Positions 26,777 to 62,569 of a DNA stretch of 64,000 nt are shown one piece after another. Location: positions 40,513 through 104,512 of the forward strand of contig DOZH01000005.1 of assembly GCA_003518105.1 (NCBI GenBank), written 5' to 3'. The stretch is from Candidatus Uhrbacteria bacterium (lineage in GTDB: Bacteria; Patescibacteriota; Patescibacteriia; UBA9934). Every line of letters begins with the position of its first letter. The first letter of the stretch is position 1. The notes under the pieces were generated by a model that saw only the letters and a program-made list of their open reading frames with translations, ran no database searches and was not told the DNA's origin. The translations under genes and the position numbers were made by a program.

Positions 26777-26784
26777 ATTGAAGT

Positions 26785-27063
26785 TTAGTGATAATCAACT
26801 ATTTTAGCGCCGTAGGCATTGCCATTTTTCCAGATAAAGCAGATACGCCATTGATCATTGATTCGGATACTGTGATATTCAACAAGCTTGCCCTGTAGCT
26901 TTTCCAATTTATTCCCTGGCGGACTAATCAAATCGATTAACGAAACTGCGGCATCTAGTATAGCCAGTTTTCTCAAGGCAATACGCTCAAATCGCTCTAA
27001 TTTTTTTACACGATCATGATTAAAAAGATTTTCCGTATCTTCGTCACCAAAACTTTGAATCAT
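26785..27063 (-). CDS. higB: HigB-type toxin (RelE/ParE superfamily killer protein)
   Basis: MIQSFGDEDTENLFN...LEKLQGKLVEYHSIRINDQWRICFIW. ORF open to 27117. Confidence 0.8.
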   Translation of the reverse strand: MIQSFGDEDTENLFNHDRVKKLERFERIALRKLAILDAAVSLIDLISPPGNKLEKLQGKLVEYHSIRINDQWRICFIWKNGNAYGAKIVDYH

Positions 27064-27174
27064 AGGCTGGGCAGAAGTTTGTAAAGTAATAGTAACGTGT
27101 CGCGTTATTAGTGTCAAATAGGCCGGTTATCGTCAGCTGTTCGTCAAGCCAGCTGTGTCGTATAATACATTGGT

Positions 27175-30885: not shown

Positions 30886-31704
30886 ATGTCTGCCAGTAAA
30901 AACAAGGCCGAGCTAGCTAAAAAGCTCGGTGTTAGCCGTTCTTCACTCTACTACCGCCCTAAACGTCCCAAAGATGACGAAGCTCTCAGAGACCGCATCC
31001 TAGCCGTCCAGACAGAGCATCCAGCCTACGGCCACAAGAGGATTGCCATGGCTTTAAAGCTCAACAAGAAGCGTATCCGACGAGTCATGAAGAAGTTCAA
31101 TCTTCGTCCTCGTATCCTGCGGGGTCGGCCAACCAAGCGAGATGACAGAGGCAATTTGCCAACAAAAGTACCCAATCTCGCTAAAACTATCTGCCCAATC
31201 CGAGCTAACGTGCTCTACGCGGGCGACTTCACTTACATTCCCTGGGATAATGGCTTCGTTTATGTAGCCACTGTGCTTGATGTTTTTACGCGAGAGATTG
31301 TGGGCTGGCACATTGGCCTCCACCACACCACCTCCCTCATTACGGAGGCCTTCCTAGATGCTGTACGGAGAACTGGAGTGGCACCCCAGATCTTCCACTC
31401 GGACCAGGGTAGCGAATATGTGAGTGGCAGCTACGAGCTACTCCTGGCAGCCCACGGCACTAAGGCCTCACAGAGCAAGAAATCATCCCCTTGGGAAAAC
31501 TGCTACCAAGAGTCGTTCTACAGCGGCTTCAAGCTCGAGTTTGGCAATCCAACTCGTTTCCATGACTTAGGCGAGCTTGCCGAAGCAGTCCACCGCCAGA
31601 TACACTATTACAACACAAGGAGAATCCACACCGCACTCAAGATGCCACCAGTTACTTACAGGGTTCACCAAGAGAACAAAATAGCAGTCCTCATGACCGC
31701 CTAA
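30886..31704 (+). CDS. IS3-family transposase OrfB (DDE/rve integrase core)
   Basis: YAGDFTYIPW...LDVFTREIVGW...HSDQGSEY...ENCYQESFYSGFKLE...YNTRRIH. The frame is open from 30844 and is +1 relative to OrfA. Confidence 0.85.
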   Translation: MSASKNKAELAKKLGVSRSSLYYRPKRPKDDEALRDRILAVQTEHPAYGHKRIAMALKLNKKRIRRVMKKFNLRPRILRGRPTKRDDRGNLPTKVPNLAKTICPIRANVLYAGDFTYIPWDNGFVYVATVLDVFTREIVGWHIGLHHTTSLITEAFLDAVRRTGVAPQIFHSDQGSEYVSGSYELLLAAHGTKASQSKKSSPWENCYQESFYSGFKLEFGNPTRFHDLGELAEAVHRQIHYYNTRRIHTALKMPPVTYRVHQENKIAVLMTA

Positions 31705-35378: not shown

Positions 35379-35705
35379 TTAAATAGCTAGTATTTTTCTT
35401 AACTTATCTTTCACTAACTTATAAGCAGTAGTCTCTAATTTACCAAGTTCTCCCAACACAATCTTTTTCTGTAAAGTAGCAATCTTATCCGTCCTAATAA
35501 ATGAGTCAGCCTTCAGGCCATTAGTTTGACTAGCCTTAATCCGAACATCAAAATTACCCAATTTGGCCTGTTTGACGGATGAAATGAATACCACAATGAA
35601 ATCCTCACCGCCTTTTTGTTCATAGAGCACCAAGCCGGGCCGTACTTTATGGCCAGACAGGTCGCTAAAAGGAAACGGTATTAAGACAATATCTCCTTTA
35701 GACAT
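35379..35705 (-). CDS. PemK/MazF-family toxin
   Basis: MSKGDIVLIPFPFSDLSGHKVRPGLVL, typical of the MazF/PemK N-terminus. Confidence 0.8.
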   Translation of the reverse strand: MSKGDIVLIPFPFSDLSGHKVRPGLVLYEQKGGEDFIVVFISSVKQAKLGNFDVRIKASQTNGLKADSFIRTDKIATLQKKIVLGELGKLETTAYKLVKDKLRKILAI

Positions 35706-35949
35706 AGCTTTTCTTAAGATCAGCTACTGAATATAGATCTGGTTCCTCGTTTAGGAAATCAAAACTCCGCGACAAAGCATTAATATTTGTAATCTCGTTC
35801 AAATTTTTATTGTAATGATTGGGAAATTGAATGACAATGGCATCAATAGAATTACGTCGACCAATTCCAAAAACTTCTCCGTGCATTTTTACACGGTCAA
35901 TCACCTGCTTAATATTCTTTCGAGCCTCAGTAGTAGTAATAACCTGCAT
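35698..35949 (-). CDS. Putative cognate antitoxin
   Basis: 8-nt overlap with the toxin gene. MQVITTTEARKNIKQVIDRV resembles Phd/YefM-type N-termini. ORF open to 36021. Confidence 0.55.
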   Translation of the reverse strand: MQVITTTEARKNIKQVIDRVKMHGEVFGIGRRNSIDAIVIQFPNHYNKNLNEITNINALSRSFDFLNEEPDLYSVADLKKSYV

Positions 35950-36022
35950 ATGTACAAATTGTACAATATTGCACAATGAAGCGCAAGACCAGGCCAAAAT
36001 AAGCCAAATAAACATCTCCATC

Positions 36023-41418: not shown

Positions 41419-41527
41419 ATGCTCGTTTGCGGGAAAATAATAACCGAAAACCATTAAATTAGCAAGCCAGAGGCACCTATTTACTAATAACAAAAACCAC
41501 CGTATCACTCCGATACGGTGTTTTCTC

Positions 41528-48795: not shown

Positions 48796-50007
48796 TTAGG
48801 TGTTACGTTCCTCTTGGTTCATTCTGAACATTTCATTTTCAACCCGTAGATAGCAATTAGACCATATACTTTTGTCTTTACCGAGTTGGTTGGGATTACC
48901 AATTTTTTTTGCCTGTTCACCTATCATAACCACTAATTCATTTTTTAACCGATCAAAGACCACCTGTGGCTCGATCTTCCAGGTCGCCTTACCATCCTTG
49001 ATTTCAACAAGCGGACGAAACGATGCCAATATTGGATAGATGAAGCCACTCGTAATTCTATATTTAGAAGTTTTACCAGTGAATGGCAATTCTTCGACTG
49101 ACATTCTGCCTGCTACGGGAGTGACACCCCGAAGAAGACCAAACTTTCCTCCACTTGCATTATACTCATCTGGAAGTGCAAGATAGATAGCATCATGTAG
49201 ATCAAGAATTTCCGGCAGTAATGGAGCTAGACGATCAAGACGCTCTTTCTTGTTTGGATTATCTTTATCAATAGCGAAGTGTTCAACTGTAGCCGAAAGA
49301 GATGAGTAGGCAATGATAGGGTGCGAATTTCCTTTATAGGACTCTGTATCAAAGCATAATAGGTAGGAGAGAATATCGCGAATGTCAATATCTTTGGGCG
49401 TTCCGTCTTGAAACTCCTCATACTGCTTATAGAAGATACGATCTTTATAATCCTTATCTTTTAGCTTTTCTTTGATAACTTCATAGGCTCCAAGCAGATC
49501 CTGAAAACCTTGTTCTGCCACGGGGGTAGAGTTATTACGAGCTTCAATAATCGGTGCTACTTCTTCCCGTGACTTGAATCCTTCAAGGAACTCAATTTTA
49601 ACATAAGCCTGGATTTCGTTCTGCTCTTCTGTTGTCCGAGAATCAACGTATCTACGAATAGCTCGGTTAGTGTGACCGCCATCAGCAAGGCCACTCATCA
49701 TATTATCGCTAAACTCAACCTCTACCAGACCTGTTTTATTATCATGTGTCACACTTTCTGCAAGTACGAGCAAGCCACGGTTTTTAAAGAAAAAACTTTC
49801 TGGCTCTTTACTGAGTGAATCACTGATCTCCCTTGGCACAGTCTTACTCATTTTTGGGTCACGAACATTTAACTTACGCCAGTCTTCAAGTTCCGCAGGT
49901 ACATCTTTAATATTAACAACAGCGGTATAGAGTCGATGGTCTGTAGAATCGTATGGTGTATCTTGACGGCGGAATGAGAAGGATTTAAATCTAAGAATCG
50001 TGGACAT
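48796..50007 (-). CDS. AIPR-like (abortive-infection type) protein, tentative
   Basis: AT-rich 403-aa ORF. NVRDPKMSKTVPREISDSL...FFFKNRGLLVLAESV...LADGGHTNRAI resembles the AIPR/DGQHR-type N-terminal pattern, judged from memory only. Confidence 0.4.
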   Translation of the reverse strand: MSTILRFKSFSFRRQDTPYDSTDHRLYTAVVNIKDVPAELEDWRKLNVRDPKMSKTVPREISDSLSKEPESFFFKNRGLLVLAESVTHDNKTGLVEVEFSDNMMSGLADGGHTNRAIRRYVDSRTTEEQNEIQAYVKIEFLEGFKSREEVAPIIEARNNSTPVAEQGFQDLLGAYEVIKEKLKDKDYKDRIFYKQYEEFQDGTPKDIDIRDILSYLLCFDTESYKGNSHPIIAYSSLSATVEHFAIDKDNPNKKERLDRLAPLLPEILDLHDAIYLALPDEYNASGGKFGLLRGVTPVAGRMSVEELPFTGKTSKYRITSGFIYPILASFRPLVEIKDGKATWKIEPQVVFDRLKNELVVMIGEQAKKIGNPNQLGKDKSIWSNCYLRVENEMFRMNQEERNT

Positions 50008-50266
50008 AGAGATATTTGCTAAGTAATTAGACTACTTAATAAAAAAGCACGCTACTCGCGTGTTTAGTTAAGCAAATATATCTGCAGATACATTAGCACT
50101 AGCTAAACGTTCGTCGAGAGTAGATACCTACCTGCGACTCCTTGCAAAGCTACTATGTGCTGTTGCAAGCAGCAAATCTCACGAGCGAGATCTGATAAAT
50201 GCATTATTACTCCAAATAAAAAAATACGCAAGTGGACAAGTTGTAATTAATTCAAAAATTATGAAT

Positions 50267-51403
50267 TTACTCAATCACAGGCCGTTCAATCGTCGCCATC
50301 TCAAGCACATCATCACTCGAGCCGTCTGTAATTTTCACCACATCTTTACTCATCTTCTTCAACTCATTACTCGACAAATTATACTGGTTAATCACGGTGG
50401 TCAGGTTGTTACCCACTTTAGAATGGAACTCCGCAAAGGCCCGGAAATGCTTACCCAAATCCGCCACACGCTTTAAAATGTCCTGAGTTGATTTCTCGAG
50501 CTGTAACTCTCGTAGTCCTAGCAGCACGGTCTGCAAGTAAGCAAAAAACGACGTCGGCGACACAATCATGACGTGCTTACTAAACGCGTATTCCAGCAAA
50601 TTACGACTGTTAATACCCGAACCAATCTCCGCATTCATTAAATTATAGTAGACACCCTCAGCCGGAATAAACATGAAGGCGAAGTTCATGGTGCCGTTCT
50701 GTTGTTGAATGTATTTTGACGTTTCATCAATGCGCGTCTGAATATCCGACTTCAAGTCTTTCTCTAGCTGTACCTTCCGGGCTGGGTCCTGTTCTTCCAT
50801 TAGGCGGTTGTAATTCTCTAAGCTAAACTTGGCATCAATCGGAATGATCTGATCGCGGACGAGGATGACGGCATCAGCAATTAACTCCTTGCCGGTCGCC
50901 TCATTAACTCCCAAATGATACTGCACCTTATAAGCATCTTTCGGCAGGACGTTACCTAGCAATGTTTCCAGCCAATACTCGCCGAGCACGCCACGTTGTT
51001 TAGGATTTTTCAAAATATTCTGCAAATTCTGCAATTGACCGGAGAAGTCGAGCACCTGCTTGTTGGTCGCGTCGAGCGTAGCCAGCTTTCCAGTTACATC
51101 TTGCATAGTCTTACTCGCCTCCTGCATGTTCTTCATCATCTGCTCGAACTGAGCTGCTGCACTCTTCTGCGAATCGCTAATTCCTCGGTATAACTGGTCA
51201 TTCGTGCGGTCAAGCTTGGCATGCACCTCCTGGCGTTGCTCACTATTTAAACGCTGCATCTCAGCTCGCAGGTTTTCTAGCGCTGAACCCAGTTCTTTAG
51301 CAAGCTCACCACCATCGGTTTTTTTGCTAACCTCACGGAAATAATAAAACGCCACACTCGCAATCAACACAACCAACGTAACCACGAGCAGTATATTTTC
51401 CAT
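50267..51403 (-). CDS. rmuC: DNA recombination protein RmuC
   Basis: N-terminal TM segment, long coiled coil, C-terminal FAFMFIPAEGVYY...VMIVSPTSFFAYLQTV. Confidence 0.85.
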   Translation of the reverse strand: MENILLVVTLVVLIASVAFYYFREVSKKTDGGELAKELGSALENLRAEMQRLNSEQRQEVHAKLDRTNDQLYRGISDSQKSAAAQFEQMMKNMQEASKTMQDVTGKLATLDATNKQVLDFSGQLQNLQNILKNPKQRGVLGEYWLETLLGNVLPKDAYKVQYHLGVNEATGKELIADAVILVRDQIIPIDAKFSLENYNRLMEEQDPARKVQLEKDLKSDIQTRIDETSKYIQQQNGTMNFAFMFIPAEGVYYNLMNAEIGSGINSRNLLEYAFSKHVMIVSPTSFFAYLQTVLLGLRELQLEKSTQDILKRVADLGKHFRAFAEFHSKVGNNLTTVINQYNLSSNELKKMSKDVVKITDGSSDDVLEMATIERPVIE

Positions 51404-51477
51404 ATTGACCCAAAGCTTAAAAATGACTATACTCGCCCTGTCCTCGAGCTTCTAGTATAGCACGACACATATATTCT

Positions 51478-51551
51478 GACCTCGTAGCTCAACTGGATAG
51501 AGCAGGTCCGTCCTAAGGACAAGGTTACAGGTTCAACTCCTGTCGAGGTCA
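51478..51551 (+). tRNA. tRNA-Arg (CCT)
   Basis: Acceptor GACCTCG/CGAGGTC, D arm GCTC-AACTGGATA-GAGC, anticodon loop GTCCTAA, T arm ACAGG-TTCAACT-CCTGT. CCA not encoded. Confidence 0.85.
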
Positions 51552-51566
51552 AGAGAAATTAAAACA

Positions 51567-51590
51567 TTTGTCTAGGCCACTGTAGACAAA
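51567..51590. promoter_or_regulatory. Inverted-repeat operator candidate TTTGTCTA-N8-TAGACAAA (site 1)
   Basis: Perfect 8-bp arms with an 8-bp spacer. An identical architecture is at 52574-52597. Confidence 0.45.
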
Positions 51591-51635
51591 TAAGTTACAG
51601 CACGTGTTACAACTATAGTTACAAGATAAAATTCA

Positions 51636-51708
51636 GGGCCTGTGGCTCAGTTGGTAGAGCGCTGCATTCGCATTGCAGAGGTCAGCGGTTCGAATCCGCT
51701 CAGGTCCA
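51636..51708 (+). tRNA. tRNA-Ala (CGC)
   Basis: Acceptor GGGCCTG/CAGGTCC with G3:U70, anticodon arm CTGCA-TTCGCAT-TGCAG, T arm AGCGG-TTCGAAT-CCGCT. Confidence 0.9.
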
Positions 51709-51807
51709 CCCGAGCTCAGCTCGGTTGTCGGTATGCGCCCAAAGCTCAGCTTTGGTAATTCGACAACTAGCTTGCTGCTGAGCGAAGGGTGAGTCAGCTC
51801 AGCTGAC
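51709..51807. repeat. AGCTSAGCT hairpin repeat cluster (non-coding copy of the element found inside two surface-protein genes)
   Basis: CGAGC-tca-GCTCG, CCAAAGC-tca-GCTTTGG, GTCAGC-tca-GCTGAC. The reverse complement of 51709-51765 aligns with 60085-60135 and 55408-55460. Confidence 0.65.
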
Positions 51808-51855
51808 CACCACTCGATCATTCAACCATGATCAATATTGGTTGACTCAGTCAGA

Positions 51856-51883
51856 TATAGTAGATTATATATAATCTACTATA
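51856..51883. repeat. Perfect 28-bp palindrome
   Basis: TATAGTAGATTATATATAATCTACTATA. Confidence 0.7.
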
Positions 51884-51906
51884 ATAACGAGGTGAATTCG
51901 GCAAAC

Positions 51907-51941
51907 AAAATCAGTCACTTCTGTGGCTGATTTTGTTTTTT
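51907..51941 (+). terminator. Intrinsic terminator about 200 nt downstream of tRNA-Ala
   Basis: AAAATCAGTCAC-ttct-GTGGCTGATTTT followed by GTTTTTT. Confidence 0.6.
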
Positions 51942-52013
51942 GCGCTTTTATTGGGCTTTATTGAAAACGGCACGTGTAACAGGCTTATTTGAGAAAAAAG
52001 GAAGCTCATTTTC

Positions 52014-52042
52014 TGTTGATAACCTGTGGATTGTGTGGATAA
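52014..52042. promoter_or_regulatory. DnaA-box cluster (third locus, part a)
   Basis: TGTTGATAA (52014-52022), TGTGGATTG (52025-52033), perfect TGTGGATAA (52034-52042). Confidence 0.45.
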
Positions 52043-52441
52043 CTCAGCAATATGGAAACTGAAAAATCATATAATCATATTATTACAGGGGTAAGTTGGA
52101 AATTTAGCTATCCATCACATAAAGAATACATCTGTGCATAACTAGTTAAATTAATCGCAATCCCAGCTTATCAATCACTATTGAAAACTCTCAAGAGTAG
52201 AATATTGTTAGGTTAGTATTTGGCTAAAATTAGCCTAAAAATAGTTTATAACTTAACAGAAGATTGCCCTAGCCGCAGTAGACAATTCGAATATAACTTT
52301 TGTATTCATCAACGCAAAGTATCGATAAAAAATCTACTTCTCTGGCTCTAAAAAGCTATAAGAAATCTATAAATAAAATTAGTCCTTCAGTCATCTTATC
52401 GTAGTAATTTAGCGTCACCAACTCGTTTAAACGAACACAGT

Positions 52442-52487
52442 TTATCCACCGTCAAAAATCGCAAAATTACACCAAAAGTTATCCACA
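52442..52487. promoter_or_regulatory. DnaA-box pair (third locus, part b)
   Basis: TTATCCACC (52442-52450) and perfect TTATCCACA (52479-52487). Confidence 0.45.
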
Positions 52488-52573
52488 GTTAGGGGAAGAT
52501 GAACTCGAAATTACGCAAAAAATCACTTTAATTTTAGAGATCATAAGCCAAAAAAACACCAAAATAACCTTTT

Positions 52574-52597
52574 TTTGTCTACGCTAGAGTAGACAAA
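52574..52597. promoter_or_regulatory. Inverted-repeat operator candidate TTTGTCTA-N8-TAGACAAA (site 2)
   Basis: Perfect arms, about 120 nt upstream of the surface operon start. A half-site GTAGACAA is at 52278-52285. Confidence 0.45.
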
Positions 52598-52719
52598 TTC
52601 ATGAAACATTGTGAAACTTACAAAATTTAATTTAAGTATTCAGATAATTTAAAAGTTAGTCACCGCAGAGTCATCAGGCAAGTGGTTCAGTAGGAGATTC
52701 CGCGGTATACTGTAACCAT

Positions 52720-53634
52720 ATGCAGCGACGATGGAGCCTAATTCTAGCAGTCGTGTCACTCTTGTTGTTGGCCTTGAACGTCCCTCAAGTTTTGGCCGTC
52801 ATGTCCTCCACTAACTACTCCATCGGCTGGGACTCGGTTGGCGTCGGCGGGTCTGACACCTCGTCGAGCGCCACTTATAAACTTCGCGACAACTTCGGCT
52901 TCGTGCAGGGGGCCTCATCCTCGGCTAGTTACCAGTTTAACTCCGGCTACCGCGCCGGCGTCTATGATCGGGTAGCTGACTTCTCGGTCAACTCCCAACT
53001 CCGTTCAAGCGCCGTTGCCGCCACCTCAGCTACAGCTACCACAGTCACCGTCACTTCAACCTCAGGTTTCTCGGTTGGGGACTACATAGCCGTCATCCAG
53101 GACGAAGGTTCTGGCCAAATCTCAGAAATGGGAAAAATAACCTCTATCGCCAGTCCAATTATTACGGTCGACGCATTTAACGGGGCTGGGCCGTCAATTG
53201 ACGGTAGTAATGACCTTGTCTACCGTCTCTCAGGTAGCGCACTGGACCTCGGTACTCTCACCGCCTCGGCCGTGTCCACCTCCATCATCGGTTGGGACGT
53301 CACCGCCGACATCGCTCAGGGTTACAGTGTCTATATCATGGAAGACCACGACCTCCGTAATGCGGACAATATTGCCATCACCGACGTTGCTGACGGCACA
53401 GTCAGTGCTGGCATTGGCGAGTACGGTGCCAAGTCGTCGGACACCACCCTCGCCTCATCCACTTTCGACACCGCCGATACGGCCATCACCTCATCCCTCC
53501 AGCAAGTCGCCAGCCGCAGTGATAACAGTTTTAGCACACGCGACTTCCTCACCCTCAAAGTCGCTCCAGCTACAGCGCAGGCCTCTGGTACCTACAGCCA
53601 AACCGTGAGCCTTATTTATGTTGGCGATTACTAG
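52720..53634 (+). CDS. Secreted protein (signal peptide), first gene of the surface operon
   Basis: N-terminal RRWSLILAVVSLLLLALNVPQVLA. Ser/Thr/Ala-rich. No enzyme motif. Confidence 0.6.
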   Translation: MQRRWSLILAVVSLLLLALNVPQVLAVMSSTNYSIGWDSVGVGGSDTSSSATYKLRDNFGFVQGASSSASYQFNSGYRAGVYDRVADFSVNSQLRSSAVAATSATATTVTVTSTSGFSVGDYIAVIQDEGSGQISEMGKITSIASPIITVDAFNGAGPSIDGSNDLVYRLSGSALDLGTLTASAVSTSIIGWDVTADIAQGYSVYIMEDHDLRNADNIAITDVADGTVSAGIGEYGAKSSDTTLASSTFDTADTAITSSLQQVASRSDNSFSTRDFLTLKVAPATAQASGTYSQTVSLIYVGDY

Positions 53635-54532
53635 CCTCCGCTCGTTTGCGTTAGCCCTCGTTGGCCTTTGGTTTTTTTTATTACCAAGCTCCGCCTCGGC
53701 CTTATCGTTTACGCCTACCGCTACAGATCTCACGCTCATGCCAGGCGAAACTCTCACTAAAAATTTCACCCTTACTAACGATTCAACCGTCACTAAAAAT
53801 TATCTAACAGCCCTCAACCTTGTTCACTTCGACGCCACTACGAACGAACCTATCTTTGACGCCTGGCCTGCCTCCCTCAACTCATCGGTTATTATCGACA
53901 CTAACGACTTCACTCTCGATGCCAACGCTCAAAAAAATATCACTGTCACCGTCAGCCTACCCGCCAACACCACCGCCAGTTCACTCGTACTCGGCCTCAT
54001 CATCACCGAAGTGGCACCAGCGACCGTAGTTCAGGTCACGCCCGGCGTCAGCAGCCTCATCTTTGTCACCATCGGCCAACCCTCAGTTTTACCAGTTCTG
54101 ACAGGTTTTTCCGCCTCGTCATTTATTCGCAGCTCTCTGCCTATCGACTTCACCGGCAACATTATCAACAACGGCGATCGCACTTTGCAACCACTCGGCA
54201 CCGTTACGGTGTATAATGCGTTCAGTAAACGTCTCGCTACTTTTGACATCAACCCTACAGTGCGCCGCATTCCCACCAATCAGAATCGCGATTTCACCGT
54301 TACTTGGGGTTCGGCCCGGACCACCGGTAATTTCTTTCAAGAGTTATGGCGCGAAGTAACCAATTTTAAAGTTGGCTTCTTCACGGCAGAACTGTTGGTA
54401 GCACCATTTCCCGGCGCTGACGCCACCATCAGCCAAACCACGCACGTTATCGTGCTACCTTGGCGAGTGTTGCTAGTCGTCCTCGGGTTTGGTGCAATCA
54501 TCATCGTCTCTGTCCGCCGTCACAAGCGGTAA
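53618..54532 (+). CDS. Cell-surface protein with a signal peptide and a C-terminal membrane anchor
   Basis: N-terminal hydrophobic leader. C-terminal VLLVVLGFGAIIIVSV followed by RRHKR. 17-nt overlap with the upstream gene. Confidence 0.6.
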   Translation: MLAITSLRSFALALVGLWFFLLPSSASALSFTPTATDLTLMPGETLTKNFTLTNDSTVTKNYLTALNLVHFDATTNEPIFDAWPASLNSSVIIDTNDFTLDANAQKNITVTVSLPANTTASSLVLGLIITEVAPATVVQVTPGVSSLIFVTIGQPSVLPVLTGFSASSFIRSSLPIDFTGNIINNGDRTLQPLGTVTVYNAFSKRLATFDINPTVRRIPTNQNRDFTVTWGSARTTGNFFQELWREVTNFKVGFFTAELLVAPFPGADATISQTTHVIVLPWRVLLVVLGFGAIIIVSVRRHKR

Positions 54533-54541
54533 AAACCTCGT

Positions 54542-57082
54542 GTGAGGCAGTTTTTTTTAACCTTGCGTGCAACTTTTTTTATCATACTCGGAGGAGTGTG
54601 CATTTTGCATTCAGCCAATATTACCCAAGCCGCCACCGTGACAGATCTCTACGATCAGCCTTCGTCGCTCGTCATTTCCGCCGCCTCAAATCATAAATTT
54701 GTCTTCGTTCCAGCTAGCAATATCAGTGGCGGCAGCACCTTAACTTTCACCTTTGCCTCACAATTTACTACCACCAGTATCACCGAAGACGACGTCGACA
54801 TCGCCGACGATGGCGTAGACCTCACCACGGCCGTCAACTGCGCTGGTGCCGACCAAGCCTCAATCGCCATGGCCGGTAACATTTTAACCATCACCATTTG
54901 TGCTGGCAACGGTGGCGACATTGCACTTGGAAGTTCGGTTACTGTCGAGGTTGGCACCAACGCCTCGGCCTCAGGTAGCGGCACAAATCAAATCACTAAC
55001 CCTAGTACTGCCGCCACCTATTACATCACCTTAGGTGGTACCTTCGGCGACTCCGGTTCGATTCCATTGCCCTTTGTTACCAGCAATAGCGGCGGCGTTT
55101 CTGGTACCTTCACGGCTCCCAGTAGTGATAACGGTAATAATGGTTGCGGCGCTTGCGGTGGCGATCCAACCCCAACTCCCACACCCGACCCAACTCCAGT
55201 TCCAGATATTCCACCCGTCGAACCCACCCCAGAACCAACCCCAACACCTGAACCTACACCCACTCCGACCCCAGAACCAATCCCTACACCAACTCCCACC
55301 CCAGCGCCCGACTCAACCCCAACTCCAACCTCAGGCTCAACGCCTTCCTCGGGTTCGACGCCAACAACGACTCCCACCGAACCAACAACCCCACCTACTG
55401 AACCAATCACCGAGCCAAGTCAAAGTCCAGATTTGACCGCAAATCCACCAATCGAGCTCAGCTCGACCACCGCCACTCTTATCGTCGACGGCGGCCTTAC
55501 GCTCACCCCCGACGGAACTACTTTCTCTACTCTCGCTGGCACCCCCTCCACTATCAGCGTCACCCTAGATGAATCTACTCCAGTCACGGAAGCTCGTGTC
55601 ATCATCGACCATGTTGCCTACGTTTTAGTAGCCAACAATAGCTCGTACACAGCCAACATCGTGCTACCATCCGCCGACACCGCCCTCACCATTCAAGCCG
55701 ACCATACTGACGGTACTACGTCGACCTCATCCTACACCCTCAACGTCCAGGGCGGCGGCATGGTTTACGAAGTCGTCAATAAATCATGGGTGCCAGTTAG
55801 CGGCGCTATGGTTACGGTCTATCAAACTAGCGGCGGCTCGCATACAGCCTGGAATGCCTCAGCCTACGACTCCATCAATCCAGTCATCGTTGGCAGTAGT
55901 GGCGCCTATTCTTTCTACGTTCCGAACGGCACTTATCAAATCACCGCCAGTCACCTCGGTTTTCAAGAGGGAACTAGTCCCACAATCACAGTTACTAATC
56001 ACATCCTTACTACCTCGATCGAACTTAAACGAACAACGATTGCGCCAATTTCTCCTGCACCAACCGGTGCTATAAATATCGCAGTCGCCGCGGTCACCAC
56101 GCAGCTCGACGTCATTCGTGATATTCCGGCAGTCCAAGTTGCCACCTCAATTGCTACCCCCGCCACGGCCGTACTTGCCGCTACCTCAGCCGTTGCCTTG
56201 GCCTCCTCCTTCAGCCTTCTTCCATACCTCCAATACCTCTTCACCGCACCCTTCCTCTTCTTTGCTCGCCGTAAGCGTAAAGCTTTCGGTACCGTCTATA
56301 ATGCCGCCACCAAACTTCCAGTGGACCTCGCTATCATTCGTCTCTTTTCAAGTCCCGAGCATAAACTAATCCGCAGTGTCGTCACCAACCAAAAAGGTGA
56401 GTATTTGTTATCCGTCGCCGCCGGCACTTACACTATTGAAGTTCTAAAGCAAAATTTCTCCTTCCCAAGTGCCATCCTACAAGGCAAAAAAGACGATGGT
56501 GCATTCCTCGACGTCTACACTGGCCAAATCATCACCGTTTCTGATCAAGAAGCTACCATTGCCGCTAACATTCCGCTCGATCCTGCTGGCGCTGCTTCAC
56601 TCGCCACGCCACGTCATGCCGCCCTCATTCGCCTATTCCGCGTTGCCCAACAGGTCGTAGCTATTGCCGGCATAGTTCTGTCTATTGTTGTGCTCATCAT
56701 CGCGCCAACAATATTCACCACCATCATGTGCGTGGTGCAAATAATCGTCTATCTTTTAGTCCGTCGTTTGGCTCGTGTCCGCAAACCAAAAGGTTGGGGC
56801 ATTGTTTACGACGAGGTGACTAAGCAGCCTGTGAGTAACACCGTCGTCAGATTGTTCGAGCCCGTGTATAATAAACTCATCGAAACGGTTTTAACGGATC
56901 GCTTCGGTCGCTACGCTTTTCTTGTTGGGCCAAGTCAGTATTACGTCAGCTATAGTAAACCTGGTTACACCGAGAAATTGGTGCGACCAATTGACTTTAG
57001 CACCCGCACCGAGCCAACCGCTCTAGCGCTTGATGTACCACTAGCCGAAGCCGCAGAAGTTGTAGTCAAAACGGAGGTATGA
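54542..57082 (+). CDS. Large surface protein: signal peptide, Pro/Thr linker, CarboxypepD_reg-like repeats, several TM segments
   Basis: [30 protein letters not shown] linker. Two repeats of type GxVYxxxTKxPVxxxxxRLF. Hydrophobic segments near residues 560-590 and 700-740. Confidence 0.65.
55408..55460 (+). repeat. AGCTSAGCT double-hairpin element, in-frame copy inside the 846-aa gene
   Basis: AGTCAAAGTCCAGATTTGACCGCAAATCCACCAATCGAGCTCAGCTCGACC, encoding [17 protein letters not shown]. Confidence 0.6.
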
Positions 57083-60000
57083 TGACTCGTGCCGCATTTC
57101 ATCTGCGACGATTCTTAGCTAGCTCCATGCTGGCCATCTTGTTGTTTTCAGGCCTCTTCGGTTTTACACTTTCTCAAGTCAACGCCGCCTCAGCCCCAAA
57201 CATTCTCAACTATCAAGGCCGCCTATTGAACGCGAACGGCGTACCGATCAGTGCTGCCTCGGCTAGCATGACCTTCGCGCTCTACACCGTGCTCGCCACT
57301 GGCAGCCCCGGTGACGCCGAATGTGTCTGGACTAATAGTAGCAGCAGTGGTTTTTCAGCGACGACTCGTACAGTAACCTTAACCGATGGCCTCTTTAGCG
57401 AAAACTTGGGTGACACCGCCGCTGGCACTCCCTATGCGGCTATCACTGATTCAATTTTTTCTAATAATGCCAATCTCTACCTAGAAATTACCATCAACGG
57501 TGAAATGCTCACTCCTCGCAAACAAATCGTCTCCGCTCCGTACGCCATGAACTCGGACACCCTCGACGGCTTCGACAGCACGCAAGCCGGCGGTACCACG
57601 GCCGCCACTCTCGTCCTCAACAGTTCTGGCAACCTCCAGCTCACCGGTAATCCAAGCGGTTCCACTATCAGCAGCGGTTCGCTTTATATTAATCCAGCTA
57701 CTGGCGACGTGGCTGCCAACGACGTTCTCTTTGGCATTGCTGTCACCGGTACCACAAAATTTTCTCTCGACGCCGAGGGCGACACTATCGCTACGGGCGA
57801 CCTCGCGGTTAATGGGGGGGACTTCACAACTAGTGCTACCACCTTCAATTTGCTCACCACCACCGCTACCACGCTCAGCTTCGCCTCAGCCGCCACTACC
57901 CTCAATATCAACAACGCAGCTGGCGTCTCCACCAAAACCATCAACATTGGTGGCACTTCTGCCGACAGTCCCAATGCCATCAACATCGCCACCGAAGGCA
58001 CCCAAGCCGACACCATCATCATCGGCAACAATAACGCGTCGACTCTGATGACCTTAACTGGTGGTAATGACTGGTCAATCGACAACGCTGGTATTATTAC
58101 GACAACTGGCAATATTACAACAGCTGGCGACGTCGCTGTTAACGGCGGTGGAATCACCTCGACAGACACTCTTGATATTTCCTCATCAAGCAGCAATATT
58201 TCATTGTCAGCAAGCGGCAGCGGATCGGGTATGGTCTACGTTACAGCGGGCGACAATTTTGCTGTCGGCGGTATCACAGACGCTGTTCCTTTCTCAGTAA
58301 CCGAAGCCACCAATTCGGTGCGCATCGGTGACGGAGCAAGTGATAGCAATGATCCAGCGATCAGATTCTTTGCTTCCGATGCTTCAGACGACGGCACCCT
58401 CAAATATGCAGACACTGATGCTTTCGAATTCTTTGGTGGCGACCTCGTCCATACTGCTATCGCTACTACAACCTTCGGTCAGCATTTTGTTAATGACTCA
58501 ATCACGAGCGGGGTCGGCATGTCTATCAGCCGTGCTGATGGCGTGACAGACTTTACAGGCGCCTTGCTCAGTATTGCTCAGAATGATACCAGTACTACCA
58601 GCACGGGCAATGCTTTAGTAGTTGTCCAAGACGCTAATAATACTAGTTGCGTCGCCGGTCCTTGCGCTAAAGGCCTTTTCATTGCTCAAGCCCACACTAC
58701 AGCCCACATCGCTGACGACCCAGGGGGGAGCGCTCTTGCTATCGACATAGGTGAAGCAGGCAGTACCGACGACGCCATTGTTCTTCGAGCTGGTCCTGCT
58801 ACAACTTTCCGTGTGACTACCGAAGGTAATGCCTACGCCGACGGTGCCTTTACTGGTGGTGGCGCTGACTTGGCTGAGTATTTTCCCACCTCCAACACTA
58901 GTCTCGGCAGTGGTCAAATAGTTTGCCAAGATACAGTGAATAAAAATCAAGTTACGCAGTGTATTAACAGTCAGTACGCTCCGATCGGTGTAGTTTCAGA
59001 CAATCCTGCCTTTATCGGTAATCTCATAGGTGATGCTTCTGAAGATCTGCGCCACAACCCTAATTATAGTCTCGTCGGTTTGCTCGGTCAGATCGACACC
59101 TTGGTCGACGACAGCAGGGGAGTCATCAACATCGGTGACCCCATCACGGCCTCGTCAGCTACCAGCGGCTACGGCGCCAAAGCTATCGGCGCTGGTCGCA
59201 TTGTCGGTTACGCCCTCGAACCTCTCTCATCCACCACCGGCACTATCCGCGTGCTCGTCCAACCACAATGGTTCGGCGGTACAGTAGCGGCTCCAGCCCC
59301 TGCCACCTCGGCCGAAGTTGTCGCTGCTAACCCAGTTGTTATCGCCGATAATTCCGTTTCTGGCTTAACCAACACCTCTGTTCTCGACGTCGACGGTTCG
59401 CTCAACATGAACGGCGGTCGTATTCTATCCGTCTCATCATTGCAGGGTCTCGGTGGTAACTGGCACCTGGCCGAGAACGGTGACTTCACTACCCACGGTC
59501 AATTCATTGGCTTGGTCAATGGCTACAGCGGCGCCCCAGTCGAGACTTATGCCACGATGAGTCGCCAGCATCTCATTCAACTCTCCGGCACTGCTACCCT
59601 CCAAAACGGCATCGCTCACGTTCTCTTCGTAGACGTCGACCCTCAGTTCGCCGACGTTATCAGTAACACCTCACCTTACCGCGTCATCGCCACGCCTTCT
59701 GGTCTCACTGGCCAAATCTACATCAGCGAACGCACTCTCACTGGCTTCACCATCCGCGACATCAATAACTCAAACGGCGTCGAGGTTGACTGGTTAGTTA
59801 TGGCCTATAATAAAGACTTCTCCCCAGACTCGGTCATCACTGTGCCTGTTGTTGAGCCAGTTATCGGTAATGCTCCACCCGCCTCTGCTCCATCAGTCGA
59901 GCCATCTGCTGACACCACTGCTCCCCTCACCGAACCAGCTATCATCGATCCTCAAGTTGATGCTTTAGTAGTCGCCGAAGACCCGGTTATTACCACCGAA

Positions 60001-60207
60001 CCGGTCATTACGCCCGACCCAGTTGCCGACGCTCCCGTTATTGCCGAGCCAGTCTCGACTCCTGACCCAGCCGTTACCGAGTCAAGCCAAAGCTCAGCTT
60101 TGGCCGCAAATCCAACAAGCGAGCTGAGCTCGCCCGAGCCTGTAGCCGAAGCTGCACCAGTAGTCGAGCCATCACCCGCAAACCCTCCTCCAGCTATGGG
60201 GGAGTAG
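57079..60207 (+). CDS. Giant secreted protein (1042 aa), fibre/adhesin-like
   Basis: Signal peptide (LASSMLAILLFSGLFGFTLSQVNA), long Thr/Ser/Gly/Ala-rich repeats, ADLAEYFP...GDPITAS C-terminal domain, Pro-rich tail. ATGA overlap with the upstream gene. Confidence 0.65.
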   Translation: MMTRAAFHLRRFLASSMLAILLFSGLFGFTLSQVNAASAPNILNYQGRLLNANGVPISAASASMTFALYTVLATGSPGDAECVWTNSSSSGFSATTRTVTLTDGLFSENLGDTAAGTPYAAITDSIFSNNANLYLEITINGEMLTPRKQIVSAPYAMNSDTLDGFDSTQAGGTTAATLVLNSSGNLQLTGNPSGSTISSGSLYINPATGDVAANDVLFGIAVTGTTKFSLDAEGDTIATGDLAVNGGDFTTSATTFNLLTTTATTLSFASAATTLNINNAAGVSTKTINIGGTSADSPNAINIATEGTQADTIIIGNNNASTLMTLTGGNDWSIDNAGIITTTGNITTAGDVAVNGGGITSTDTLDISSSSSNISLSASGSGSGMVYVTAGDNFAVGGITDAVPFSVTEATNSVRIGDGASDSNDPAIRFFASDASDDGTLKYADTDAFEFFGGDLVHTAIATTTFGQHFVNDSITSGVGMSISRADGVTDFTGALLSIAQNDTSTTSTGNALVVVQDANNTSCVAGPCAKGLFIAQAHTTAHIADDPGGSALAIDIGEAGSTDDAIVLRAGPATTFRVTTEGNAYADGAFTGGGADLAEYFPTSNTSLGSGQIVCQDTVNKNQVTQCINSQYAPIGVVSDNPAFIGNLIGDASEDLRHNPNYSLVGLLGQIDTLVDDSRGVINIGDPITASSATSGYGAKAIGAGRIVGYALEPLSSTTGTIRVLVQPQWFGGTVAAPAPATSAEVVAANPVVIADNSVSGLTNTSVLDVDGSLNMNGGRILSVSSLQGLGGNWHLAENGDFTTHGQFIGLVNGYSGAPVETYATMSRQHLIQLSGTATLQNGIAHVLFVDVDPQFADVISNTSPYRVIATPSGLTGQIYISERTLTGFTIRDINNSNGVEVDWLVMAYNKDFSPDSVITVPVVEPVIGNAPPASAPSVEPSADTTAPLTEPAIIDPQVDALVVAEDPVITTEPVITPDPVADAPVIAEPVSTPDPAVTESSQSSALAANPTSELSSPEPVAEAAPVVEPSPANPPPAMGE
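60085..60135 (+). repeat. AGCTSAGCT double-hairpin element, in-frame copy inside the 1042-aa gene
   Basis: GCCAAAGCTCAGCTTTGGCCGCAAATCCAACAAGCGAGCTGAGCTCGCC, encoding SQSSALAANPTSELSSP. Confidence 0.6.
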
Positions 60208-60225
60208 GAGGGGGCTTTAACTTAT
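60185..60225 (+). repeat. PPAMGE mini-palindromic repeat at the 3' end of the 1042-aa gene
   Basis: CTCCTCCAGCTATGGGGGAGTAGGAGGGGGCTTTAACTTAT. It contains the gene's TAG stop and ends at the next gene's ATG. Confidence 0.75.
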
Positions 60226-62569
60226 GAAATTAAATTTTTTACGAGTGAGCCACCTCTGGACGTCAGTCGCGTTCCTAATTCTGGCCGTCGCCATCCCGTT
60301 ACTCTATCTCCCATTTACCATCGAACCCCACGAACTCATCAAGCAAACCCTCCTCGTTCTTATCATCGTCCTCTCGAGCCTCACCTTGGTCGCCACCATC
60401 ATCCAAACTCGCACTCTCACTCTCCGTCGTGACTGGAGTTATTTATTGTTCGCCCTCCTCATCGTTTCTCTGCTCATCGCCCCCGGTCTCCGCGAGTCAC
60501 CTTTCTTGTCGTTAATGGGCCAAGCTGGGCAGGAATACACCAGCGTTCTCAGCTTTGTCATGTACGGCCTGCTCTTCTTCCTCGGTGCCGAATCACTCAA
60601 AACACCCGGTCAAATTAGCCGTCTTCTCTCAGCCCTCCTCATTGGCAGCGCCCTAATTTCCATACTCGCCATCCCAGCCTTCTTCGGTGCCACCTTCCCT
60701 CCACCCCTCATCGGCGGCGCCAACACTTTCGCCGTTTATCTCATTACGCTGATGACCCTCGGCCTTGGTCTGTGGTTGTTGGATCGCGCCGACGCCCCTC
60801 ACCCTATACTGCCGAGCGGTTTCTTCGGCCTCATCGTCCGCGCCTCTATTCTCATCACGAGTATAATTTCTTTCATCACTCTCCTCGCCCTCGACTACAG
60901 CCCCCTCTGGTTCTTGTCGATGATCGGCCTTGGCGCCCTCTTCCTCATCGCCTTCATTAAGCCAACTGAGTTCAAGTATCACGGTCGCTTTGTCCTACCC
61001 ATGCTTTTCTTCGGCTTAAGCCTCATCTTTATCTTCTTACCGAGCCCTATCAGCAGTCCCTTCGCCCCAGAAATAGCACCCACTCAATCCGCTAGTCTCG
61101 CCATCGCCACTAGCACTCTTAACGAGCATCTCCTCTTCGGCTCCGGCGCCGGCACTTACGGCTTCGATTACGCCGCCCATTCCTCACCATCGCTCAACTC
61201 TACAGCCTATTGGGACACCACTTTTTCCTCAGCTAATTCCTATTTCTTAACACTTCTCCCAACCGTCGGCCTCATTGGCACAGGTCTTTATCTGCTCATC
61301 TGCTTAATGATTTTGGCTGGTGCGATCATCGTACTCTTCCACGCTCGCCACATTGCTAATCGAACCATCATTATCGCGCCAATAACTGCCTGGCTCGTCC
61401 TCTTTAGCGCTCAGTTCTTAGTTTCTTCAAACATCACTCTCTCCGTCACGTTCTGGCTCCTTTCCGCCATTCTCGCCTCACTCTCAGTCAAAAAACTTTA
61501 CACCGTGTCCTTCGACCGGTCACCCCGCACCGGTCTCGCCGCTATTTTTCTTTCCGTCTGCGTCATCCTCGGCCTCTTCACCGCTCTGTTCGTCACCGCC
61601 TCCCGTTACCTTGCCGAGTTATCTTTTCAACGCGCTATCACTCTCAGTCAAACTGGTGGCAATCCTGATGACGTCATTGCGACTCTGGATCGCGCCGCCA
61701 TTCTTAACCGCTGGAACGACGTTTACTATCGCAATCTCGCCCACATTCTTCTGCAAAAAACCGCCATCGCCTTAAAACAACCAGACGTCGACCAAACCTA
61801 CATTCAGCAGCTCATCGGGTCGAGCGTCAATGCCGCCAAGCGTGCTACCGAACTTGCTCCAAGCAACGTCGCCAACTGGGTCATTCTCGGCGACACTTAC
61901 AAAGAAATCGCTCCAGCCATTCCAGAATCTGTTATCTTTGAACTCGCCGCTTACCAAAAAGCCCAAGTTCTCGCCCCCAGTAACCCACGCTATCTAGTCG
62001 ACGTGGCTCAGGCCCACCTCGCAGTTGCGGATGGTGCAGCAATCGTCATGGCCGGCTCTGACAAGGACCTCGCCGCCCAAGCCACTATCAATCGCGCCTC
62101 AGCCCTCGACTCTGCCCTAACTGCCTTACTCTCCGCCCAAAAACTTAAGCCAGATTACGCTCCAGCCGGTTACTACCTGGCTGGTGTCTACGAACGCCAA
62201 GGCAAATTAGCCGACGCCATTGCTGGCCTCGAAGCCATTCGCAATTCTAACCTAAACGACGTCGGAGTCGGCGTCCAGCTCGCCTTACTTTATCTCAAAC
62301 AAGGCAAAAATACTCTCGCTCAAGATGAACTAACTCGCGTGCTCGACATCAGTTCCGACTATGCGGACGCCCACTGGTATTTGGCCACCATTTTTGAGAA
62401 CCAAGGCGACCTTGAGCGCGCCATCATTCAGGTCGAAGCCGTAGCTGCCGCTAACCCAGACAATGAACTAGTAAAAACTCGTCTCTCCCGCCTCCGTCAA
62501 GGCCTGGCCGATAAACTTCTGCCACCGCCACTTGAGACTCCGACTACCGACGCCACGACTTCTCCATAA
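60224..62569 (+). CDS. Polytopic membrane protein (O-antigen ligase/Wzy-like core) with a C-terminal TPR region
   Basis: At least 10 hydrophobic segments. LLFGSGAGTYGFDY loop. C-terminal TPR-like repeats (YYLAGVYERQGKLADAI, HWYLATIFENQGDLERAI). Confidence 0.55.
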   Translation: MKLNFLRVSHLWTSVAFLILAVAIPLLYLPFTIEPHELIKQTLLVLIIVLSSLTLVATIIQTRTLTLRRDWSYLLFALLIVSLLIAPGLRESPFLSLMGQAGQEYTSVLSFVMYGLLFFLGAESLKTPGQISRLLSALLIGSALISILAIPAFFGATFPPPLIGGANTFAVYLITLMTLGLGLWLLDRADAPHPILPSGFFGLIVRASILITSIISFITLLALDYSPLWFLSMIGLGALFLIAFIKPTEFKYHGRFVLPMLFFGLSLIFIFLPSPISSPFAPEIAPTQSASLAIATSTLNEHLLFGSGAGTYGFDYAAHSSPSLNSTAYWDTTFSSANSYFLTLLPTVGLIGTGLYLLICLMILAGAIIVLFHARHIANRTIIIAPITAWLVLFSAQFLVSSNITLSVTFWLLSAILASLSVKKLYTVSFDRSPRTGLAAIFLSVCVILGLFTALFVTASRYLAELSFQRAITLSQTGGNPDDVIATLDRAAILNRWNDVYYRNLAHILLQKTAIALKQPDVDQTYIQQLIGSSVNAAKRATELAPSNVANWVILGDTYKEIAPAIPESVIFELAAYQKAQVLAPSNPRYLVDVAQAHLAVADGAAIVMAGSDKDLAAQATINRASALDSALTALLSAQKLKPDYAPAGYYLAGVYERQGKLADAIAGLEAIRNSNLNDVGVGVQLALLYLKQGKNTLAQDELTRVLDISSDYADAHWYLATIFENQGDLERAIIQVEAVAAANPDNELVKTRLSRLRQGLADKLLPPPLETPTTDATTSP

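Follow-up and report, generated by a model that had tools for sequence, protein, structure and literature searches.

The stretch of DNA analysed here, a window of 64 kb from a Candidatus Uhrbacteria genome, contains a tRNA-Arg/tRNA-Ala pair, the gene of a type-II NADH dehydrogenase (NDH-2), two surface-protein genes and the gene of a TPR membrane protein, which gave no Wzy_C or O-antigen-ligase Pfam match. Dispersed among these genes are four copies of a short palindromic element: one follows tRNA-Ala in non-coding DNA, and three are located in frame inside genes. The family to which they belong is built of short hairpins, which share the tip AGCTSAGCT and are set 30-31 nt apart; the individual hairpins are termed Ha, Hb and Hc. 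The long form found behind RNA genes is designated the trailer form. The relevant features are, in coordinates of the window:

29014-29066, plus strand: copy 1, inside the NDH-2 gene (28169-29389); the reading frame gives VAKAQLWSQAKKPAEL
29019-29035 and 29051-29063, plus strand: hairpins of copy 1, namely Hb and a variant of Ha (CCAGCTGAGCTGG)
41500-41527, minus strand: empty site, where tRNA-Arg(tct) is followed by a plain terminator; the same tRNA in locus L091 has a trailer element
51405-51433, plus strand: promoter-like site TTGACC-17-TATACT upstream of the tRNA-Arg/tRNA-Ala pair, a consensus match only
51477-51552, plus strand: tRNA-Arg(cct), with no element behind it in the window genome
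51636-51710, plus strand: tRNA-Ala(cgc), encoded 3' end ACC, with the element (copy 2) directly after it
51710-51724, plus strand: trailer hairpin Ha, CCGAGCTCAGCTCGG
51724-51767, plus strand: long hairpin with stem P3 (GTTGTCG, 51724-51730; CGACAAC, 51761-51767) and cap Hb (CCAAAGCTCAGCTTTGG, 51739-51755)
51777-51791, plus strand: 3' box GCTGAGC-GAA-GGGTG (GCTGAGCGAAGGGTG), complementary to GCTCAGC of Ha and to the tRNA 3'-end CACCC
51793-51807, plus strand: hairpin Hc, GTCAGCTCAGCTGAC
51903-51945, plus strand: hairpin and T-run (AAACAAAATCAGTCAC/GTGGCTGATTTTGTTT TTTT) 3' of the element, probably the real terminator of the tRNA transcript
55411-55468, plus strand: copy 3, in the surface-protein gene 54542-57082; an 18-residue peptide after a Pro/Thr linker
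55421-55435 and 55453-55465, plus strand: hairpins of copy 3, with Hb decayed and Ha intact
60079-60135, plus strand: copy 4, in the surface-protein gene 57079-60207; peptide ESSQSSALAANPTSELSSP
60087-60103 and 60120-60132, plus strand: hairpins Hb and Ha of copy 4
61334-61369, plus strand: empty site in a loop of the TPR membrane protein (60224-62569); a copy is present in the orthologs of loci L102 and L089

The tip AGCTSAGCT occurs nine times in the 64-kb window, compared with an expected number of 0.56; none of 100 shuffled sequences reached nine, and eight of the nine occurrences are inside elements. A search with a profile built from the copies of other genomes returned four full copies for the window and no more, at E-values of 6e-18 (60077-60135), 2e-15 (29014-29066), 1e-14 (51710-51757) and 9e-11 (55411-55468). 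The shuffles and the profile E-values rule out a chance origin. The original prediction, whose quoted sequences are all present at their coordinates, had listed three of these copies and missed the fourth, 29014-29066 in the NDH-2 gene, which was exposed by two AGCTSAGCT matches 30 nt apart (29023 and 29053). The reverse complement of 51709-51757 is identical to 60086-60133 at 40 of 46 positions; the alignment contains the single 1-nt indel that had been claimed for the intergenic copy. The alignment of 51709-51757 with 55418-55466 is weaker, and the two surface-protein copies agree with each other at 51 of 60 positions. Two hairpins with the AGCTSAGCT core had been predicted for each copy, which is correct except for copy 3 (55418-55466), where the first hairpin has decayed (CAAAGTCCAGATTTG). 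The intergenic copy is indeed a neighbour of tRNA-Ala(cgc), starting at its CC end, and it lies outside any credible ORF, as a 62-aa ORF over it overlaps the tRNA. The hairpin at 51793-51807, previously described as solitary, is real but not solitary: Hc is the regular third module of the trailer form. In Rfam, only tRNAs were matched, both for 51000-53000 at E-values up to 1 and for the whole window at the gathering score.

In order to determine the range of the element, one genome per species (185,579 species) was scanned with the pattern AAAGCTSAGCTTT-N15-20-AGCTSAGCT. Of the 60 loci obtained, 47 provided, together with the window, 55 aligned real copies. Matches in Psychrobacter, Clostridiales and some others were unrelated coding sequences or chance hits and were set aside. 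The hosts of the real copies are MAGs labelled as Uhrbacteria, one MAG labelled "bacterium" and five labelled "uncultured Gammaproteobacteria"; the latter label looks wrong, because at least one of the five encodes an NDH-2 that is 87% identical to that of the window. Copy number varies widely among the scanned genomes, with a maximum of 21 exact copies in one MAG of ~1 Mb. Note that genomes were sampled as fragments and that most loci were picked for containing the element; thus, copy numbers and contexts are samples. Viral contigs did not contain the specific pattern, and a loose pattern gave only unrelated AGCT-rich tandem repeats, which speaks against a phage or plasmid origin. Likewise, no element was found in 65 metagenome loci (885 kb) encoding relatives of the window surface protein with 30-54% identity; these 885 kb contain 13 AGCTSAGCT sites, and by our own estimate ~7 are expected. 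The 392 kb of element-bearing loci contain 142 such sites, nearly all of them in groups of two to four. The clean viral and distant-relative controls and the grouping of the motif sites indicate that the family is real, multi-copy and restricted to a sub-clade of Candidatus Uhrbacteria. Literature searches revealed no such element described for CPR, Parcubacteria or Uhrbacteria; the element is previously undescribed.

The genic and intergenic copies have a length of ~55 nt (45-57) and follow the scheme (C)GAGCCAAG - YCAAAGCTSAGCTTTGR - CCGCAAACCAACAA - NCGAGCTSAGCTCG, with a tip spacing of 30 or 31 nt (39 and 20 cases, respectively). Read on the opposite strand, this form corresponds to the trailer from Ha to Hb, and its spacer is nearly the same in the trailers of the window, L068, L091 and L093. 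Of its ends, only CGAGC...GCTCG is inverted. About 25 copies lie in ORFs in sense orientation and one, in the gene of a SpoIID-domain protein, is antisense. The genic copies are translated in all three sense frames, which give EPSQSSALAANPTSELSS, TKAQLWSQTNKPAEL or PKLSFGRKPTSQLSW; one Wzy-type gene harbors three copies in three loops, for which two frames are used. The sense-oriented copies occupy linkers and loops, irrespective of the frame. They are found outside of Pfam domains in the C-terminal linker of FtsZ, in the linker between the subtilase (S8 protease) and FG-GAP domains, at the end of a DAO oxidoreductase, between two bPH domains, before a C39-like domain and between LTD domains; a further one follows a signal peptide, and the two surface proteins of the window carry their copies in Pro/Thr or Glu/Pro linkers. 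Apart from this placement, the host proteins are functionally unrelated. The original prediction had also suggested that copies might be enriched in the 3' flanks of tRNAs and in low-complexity protein linkers, which is borne out.

Translation imposes its own constraints on the element. The mean hydropathy (GRAVY) of the encoded peptides is -0.5 to -1.2 in the sense frames and +0.35 to +0.9 in the antisense frames, which yield hydrophobic peptides containing Cys and Trp. The bias towards sense orientation can be explained by peptide tolerance alone, because the sense frames are hydrophilic and the antisense frames hydrophobic. In the EPSQS[S/stop] frame, the centre of Hb is C in at least 15 of 15 copies; G, which is common elsewhere, is excluded here because it would create TGA. 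This finding shows that the copies are translated and that a coding constraint acts on the nucleic-acid module. For NDH-2 of the window, a structure model with a mean pLDDT of 91 and a pTM of 0.90 has low values (55-68) solely over the element-coded stretch. A G-U versus A-C asymmetry in the genic stems was dropped as an argument, since it is confounded by the A/C-rich spacer. With respect to the intergenic copies, all five examined abut a -35 hexamer (GCTCGG directly followed by TTGACN-17-TATNNT), for example ahead of infB, which places them at the 3' end of the upstream transcript.

The hairpins are more strongly conserved than their surroundings. Among 12 orthologous pairs, identity is 92% for Hb, 93% for Ha and 77% for the spacer, compared with 37-47% for the flanks, a value that comes from an ungapped reading and is probably somewhat low. 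Three NDH-2 orthologs retain both tips, and their third codon positions are only ~62% identical. The conservation of hairpins at orthologous sites argues that many copies have stayed intact over long periods; the decay of window copy 3 and of the trailer in a syntenic locus described below signals that not every copy is maintained. Base pairing of the stems is maintained by compensatory change. The conserved unit is therefore a nucleic acid and not a peptide, as originally predicted: three frames are in use, non-coding copies exist and the stems covary around an invariant tip. Outside the element, AGCT is neither avoided nor enriched (observed/expected 1.05-1.07), and an analysis of restriction-modification sites gave no clear signal of avoidance or enrichment (1.07 for AGCT, 0.67 for CAGCTG). 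A PvuII-type restriction-modification system is located near the same syntenic locus.

The trailer form is ~100 nt long and was found behind tRNAs for Leu, Ala, Asp, Ser, Ile, Arg, Tyr and Lys as well as behind the tmRNA gene. It is tied exactly to the CCA end of these genes: it begins directly after the encoded CCA, or after CC in the cases of the window tRNA-Ala and of tmRNA. The order of modules is Ha (CCGAGCTSAGCTCGG), the long hairpin with a variable outer stem P3 and the cap Hb, (G)CAAAGCTSAGCTTTG(C), the box GCTS'AGC-GA-GGTG and Hc (GTCGAGCTGAGCTCGAC or variants); a classical terminator consisting of a hairpin and a T-run is often found only beyond Hc. The ends of the trailer are inverted over ~12 nt and covary, (A)CCGAGCTSAGC ... 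GCTS'AGCGAGGT. A tRNA-gene island (att) signature was looked for in the form of a tRNA-end repeat, which is absent; the ~100-nt element sits between CCA and the native terminator. An argument from helical phasing of the three hairpins was abandoned, since the Hb-Ha distance is fixed at 30-31 nt but the Hb-Hc distance ranges from 49 to 54 nt.

Single-sequence folding of 18 trailers resulted mostly in a rod, in which the box forms two helices, P2 with the 5' half of Ha and P1 with the terminal tRNA bases and CC, so that the rod can pair with the very end to which the trailer is attached. The trailer of the window folds with -48.5 kcal/mol (z -4.5); the 5' half of its Ha, together with CA/CC of the tRNA, is able to enter the alternative helices P1/P2 with the 3' box. 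The rod competes with a second fold, in which Ha forms its local hairpin. In the alignment, 95% of the cells are paired, versus 84% in shuffles, and no shuffle out of 500 was paired as highly as the real alignment. Nine sequences have G-C as the central pair of P2, five have C-G and one has G-U; 7 of the 18 sequences have G-U at one P2 pair, which works on the tRNA-sense strand only. The strands of P3 fit their cognate partners better than non-cognate ones (permutation p 0.0008), and P1 tracks the end of the tRNA with CACC/GGUG, CACCC/GGGUG (window) and CUACCAA/UUGGUAG (L093). At the base of Hb and Hc, the pair may be GC, CG or AU, depending on the copy; the 9-nt tips are invariant. The difference between sense and antisense folding is small (-2.1 kcal/mol, 13 of 18 trailers, p 0.04). 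It is mainly the G-U pairs and co-transcription that point to a structure of RNA rather than of single-stranded DNA; co-transcription itself we infer from two features of the window, the promoter-like sequence that begins at 51405 and the terminator-like hairpin further on (51903-51945).

The comparison of related genomes shows that copies are both gained and lost. Locus L180 is syntenic to the window and stems from a species whose orthologs are 79-85% identical; its surface-protein orthologs are devoid of copies 3 and 4. In the case of copy 4, the 57 nt at 60079-60135 stand against TCT in L180, a clean net gain of 18 codons. For copy 3, the net gain is nine codons, and the left junction ACC GAR CCA is shared by the empty allele. 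The tRNA-Ala trailer of L180 is half-decayed: Ha is intact, the tip of Hb is mutated, and the P1 box and Hc are absent; the Hb stem is compensated (CACTAAA/TTTAGTG). Further differences in occupancy concern tRNA-Arg(tct), empty in the window and filled in L091, and the loop of the TPR membrane protein, which is filled in two non-sister orthologs, in the same frame and with the same Ha variant, and is empty in the window and three other relatives. Within a single genome, the trailers of different tRNAs may agree almost completely across 100 nt, which implies recent copying.

At NDH-2, the 17 aa encoded by the element stand exactly for 17 aa that form an xxGRIxVDxxL beta-hairpin in relatives. 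This replacement is present throughout a clade of at least 73% identity, and more distant Uhrbacteria keep the native hairpin; in P0005, 30 nt between the two tips are deleted. A homology-driven conversion was rejected for this site, as there is no microhomology between native and element alleles. A protein identical to the NDH-2 of the window, which NCBI assigns to a Candidatus Uhrbacteria bacterium, is encoded on groundwater metagenome contigs. Several copies, among them those at NDH-2 and in the TPR membrane protein, have taken the place of native sequence at nearly or exactly the same length, which is not what a simple insertion model predicts. The mechanism of copying is a conjecture, because neither a transposase nor an autonomous partner IS with the same ends was seen in the window or in ~400 kb of loci, and because target-site duplications are not regular, as judged from copies 3 and 4 in comparison with the empty L180 alleles and from the other copies inspected. 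The sole flanking repeat is a CCGAG(C/T)C microhomology on both sides of copy 4. The AGCTSAGCT motif is absent from the IS3-family element of the window, which rules out an IS3-derived MITE.

Based on these results, we propose with a probability of roughly 60% that the element is a clade-specific dispersed palindromic repeat, which is copied at the DNA level and tolerated in genes, the trailer acting as RNA and the tip being read by a factor of the clade. The route of spread, the RNA role of the trailer and the tip-reading factor are proposed with moderate to low confidence. New sites would be reached by DNA-level copying and not by cut-and-paste transposition, probably where microhomologies such as CCGAGCC (codons for Pro-Glu-Pro) allow template switching or recombination over a short patch. 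Such a route would fit the replacement events, the absent target duplications and the preference for Glu-Pro linkers; the last point is consistent with microhomology because the codons CCN GAG CCN match the element start CCGAGCC. Inside genes, the element would survive owing to its A/C-rich sense strand, each frame of which is free of stops and yields a hydrophilic peptide. The trailer form would be co-transcribed with the tRNA, and the structure of this RNA may contribute to 3'-end processing or protection. A clade-specific factor that reads the invariant hairpin tip is the proposed reason why tips are intact at orthologous sites.

The factor could also be the primary reason for the existence of the family, a possibility that we consider clearly less likely than the repeat reading. 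AGCUSAGCU tips would then be sites for a clade-specific RNA-binding protein or nuclease, the copies in trailers, 5' regions and coding linkers would form a regulated set, trailer RNA might act antisense to genic copies, and mobility would be secondary. Invariant tips between diverged flanks across species, the compensated stem even in the decaying L180 trailer and the P2 G-U pairs confined to the tRNA-sense strand are compatible with such a hairpin code. The same is true for the genic copies, which are sense in all but one case and consequently complementary to the trailer strand, and for the intergenic copies, all five of which, as far as examined, lie where an upstream transcript ends. However, a candidate for the reading factor was not found, peptide tolerance explains the orientation bias equally well, some copies decay (copy 3 of the window, the trailer of L180), close relatives manage without copies 3 and 4, and the host genes have no function in common. 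In its most far-reaching and similarly doubtful version, the AGCUSAGCU tip would be a lineage-wide nucleic-acid "tag" read by the clade factor at the 3' ends of tRNAs and tmRNA, at transcript ends ahead of promoters and at dozens of coding sites, in frame in essential genes, and RNAs derived from trailers would possibly pair with sense genic copies.

Less probable still is an ordinary element of the MITE or REP type without any host role, moved by a transposase that is encoded elsewhere, e.g. a HUH/RAYT or IS enzyme acting on single-stranded-DNA hairpins. It would account for the ~12-nt inverted ends of the trailers, for the wide differences in copy number, for near-identical copies behind different tRNAs of one genome and for GTAG, which precedes Hc in 6 of 18 trailers. 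A random inserter is, however, not expected to start precisely at CCA or to possess a 3' box whose sequence changes together with the end of the tRNA; moreover, regular target duplications are absent, events of the replacement type occur, and no transposase lies beside or between the copies in ~400 kb, the IS3-family element of the window being devoid of the motif.

Patescibacteria carry competence genes, and a signal for DNA uptake or recombination that is kept by molecular drive was considered as well. Fragments with the motif would be preferentially taken up in natural transformation and recombined among related lineages. This would be in line with tips that are intact at orthologous sites without an evident host function, with the TPR membrane protein loop, where site, frame and Ha variant agree in two non-sister lineages and four relatives are empty, and with copies located both in tolerant coding regions and between genes, as is the case for USS and DUS. 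Known uptake sequences occur about once per kb, though, and the element only once per 16-50 kb; its covarying stems imply a folded single strand and not a duplex word, and a unit of 45-100 nt far exceeds known uptake signals, which makes this explanation improbable. Finally, a protein-level motif, such as a sorting or cleavage signal SQSSALxANPxxELSS, or the remnant of a surface-protein pseudogene beside the tRNA can be dismissed: the surface-protein copies do share one frame at the ends of Pro/Thr or Glu/Pro linkers, but the use of three frames rules out a peptide motif, copies exist in FtsZ and NDH-2 and, non-coding, behind tRNAs and tmRNA, and a tblastn comparison of the intergenic DNA with the surface proteins found no similarity beyond the element (best E 8-9.5), so that the intergenic copy is not a pseudogene remnant.

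The dispersed repeat offers a compact test case, with a 9-nt invariant tip, covarying stems, a strict CCA start and sites that are filled or empty in close relatives. It can be used to study the spread of repeats that have no obvious transposase, their possible recognition by a factor of the host and the maturation of tRNA 3' ends in these organisms. In practical terms, its copies can confuse gene calling, domain annotation and the assembly of MAGs in Uhrbacteria, and the element could serve as a clade marker.

Several known repeat systems resemble the element in part. The DNA uptake sequences DUS and USS are clade-specific words in coding and non-coding DNA; within proteins they fall into tolerant parts, and inverted pairs of them are often located behind genes. 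In comparison, the Uhrbacteria element is at least 10-fold sparser (4 copies in 64 kb; at most ~21 exact copies per ~1-Mb MAG) and is a structured unit of 45-100 nt. The CcrM-associated intergenic repeats (CIRs) of Caulobacter expose a short palindromic enzyme site, GANTC, in RNA hairpin loops (PMC2229807); similarly, the tips described here contain AGCT, GCTNAGC and, depending on the stem type, one GAGCTC or CAGCTG site. CIRs, however, are never intragenic. Correia/NEMIS, ERIC and other bacterial MITEs are small and non-autonomous, and their ends are inverted. Transcribed together with neighbouring genes, they form RNA folds that RNase III cleaves or that change the stability of the mRNA; in some cases, they are joined to an ORF or contribute promoter boxes (PMC2229807, PMC10969869). 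The intergenic copies resemble Correia-type MITEs in abutting -35 hexamers. In contrast to these MITEs, the element is not flanked by a regular target duplication, of TA or otherwise, and a parent IS was not seen; it is also much shorter, and its conserved part is the tip and not the ends.

By definition, REPs lie outside genes, and one end of their palindrome bears the tetranucleotide GTAG or CGTC (PMC3733652). As in REPs, BIMEs and REPINs, short palindromic units are arranged in small mosaics; the trailer with its imperfect long hairpin of ~90 nt is REPIN-like, and the position behind genes would suit a stabilising effect on the 3' ends of the preceding transcripts. However, about half of the Uhrbacteria copies (~25) lie inside ORFs, the genic consensus contains neither GTAG nor CGTC, and RAYT genes, to which REPs are linked, were not seen.

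The closest parallel are the Rickettsia palindromic elements (RPEs), clade-specific repeats that occur between genes and in frame inside conserved genes at fold-compatible positions and that are associated with RNA genes including tmRNA (PMC2229807, PMC10969869). In the same manner, the Uhrbacteria element is found in frame in FtsZ, NDH-2, a subtilase and other proteins, and one copy follows tmRNA directly. RPEs differ in being single long stem-loops of 105-146 bp from an alphaproteobacterium, whereas the element is two to three times shorter, has a length of 45-57 nt in genes and ~100 nt as a trailer, occurs in the Candidate Phyla Radiation (CPR) and consists of two to three short hairpins with a shared 9-nt tip, three usable frames and a CCA start; a sequence similarity to RPEs was not found. 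The element thus works most like the RPEs without being a member of their family. Palindromic repeats in frame within genes have hitherto been regarded as nearly peculiar to Rickettsia; this functionally analogous, structurally different CPR family indicates that small genomes of a very different lineage also admit repeats into essential genes, as exemplified by the linker of FtsZ and by NDH-2.

The tRNA-Arg(cct)/tRNA-Ala(cgc) pair of the window is associated with two parS-like sites with CACGTG at their centre, one between the two tRNA genes and the other 3' of the terminator, and an AT-rich palindrome lies after the trailer element and before the terminator:

51593-51612, parS-like site, GTTACAGCACGTGTTACA
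51856-51883, perfect 28-bp palindrome, TATAGTAGATTATA/TATAATCTACTATA
about 51967-51981, parS-like site, GGCACGTGTAACAGG

Distant relatives have canonical parS (TGTTTCACGTGAAACA) at both equivalent positions around the pair; besides the window, the observation covers the loci L117, L119, L120, L121, L154, L173, L174, and L177. Because both places are filled in this way, the two tRNA genes are apparently a landmark of a conserved, predicted ParB-binding region. In the more distant relative represented by L118, another hairpin-rich sequence, GCCTTCRCTCCTTCGGAGYT.CGGCTGGCRGGCCA, is common to the 3' flanks of tRNA-Arg(cct) and tRNA-Ala(cgc) and starts directly 3' of their CCA. The tRNA 3' ends of these bacteria may be recurrent sites of lineage-specific repeats.

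The window also holds the following genes:

26471-27117, HigB-like/HTH toxin-antitoxin pair
30886-31704, IS3-family (rve) transposase
35379-36021, PemK toxin-antitoxin pair
48796-51403, AIPR abortive-infection protein adjoining RmuC
52720-53634 and 53618-54532, two tandem ORFs of 304 aa each, upstream of the two surface-protein genes

The AGCTSAGCT motif is absent from the toxin-antitoxin pairs, the transposase, and the AIPR/RmuC region. Neither tandem ORF has a Pfam match; the pair is kept in the syntenic locus L180 of a relative (304 and 306 aa). In L180, 2.5 kb separate the surface-protein genes that are syntenic with those of the window from a PvuII-type restriction-modification cassette:

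14851-16596 of L180, N6_N4 methyltransferase, HTH controller, and Endonuc-PvuII

Every variant of the element's hairpins Ha and Hc of type CCAGCTSAGCTGG contains exactly one CAGCTG site. The observed/expected ratios in the window are 0.67 for CAGCTG and 1.07 for AGCT.

In the NDH-2 gene of P0004 (L113), an A replaces the usual C or G at the centre of hairpin Hb (AAAGCTAAGCTTT) and thereby gives rise to an AAGCTT site; therefore, the central base is not strictly S. Upstream of infB in L058 (about 2480-2550, minus strand), a promoter-like TTGACC-17-TATTCT abuts the element. Since it lies about 6 nt from the ATG, a leaderless infB transcript or a very short leader is suggested.

The element is also present in five MAGs deposited as 'uncultured Gammaproteobacteria' (L052, L055, L060, L078, L081, L106, L108, L109). 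These labels look wrong, as the NDH-2 of one of them, CAYHFQ01, is 87% identical to the Uhrbacteria protein of the window.
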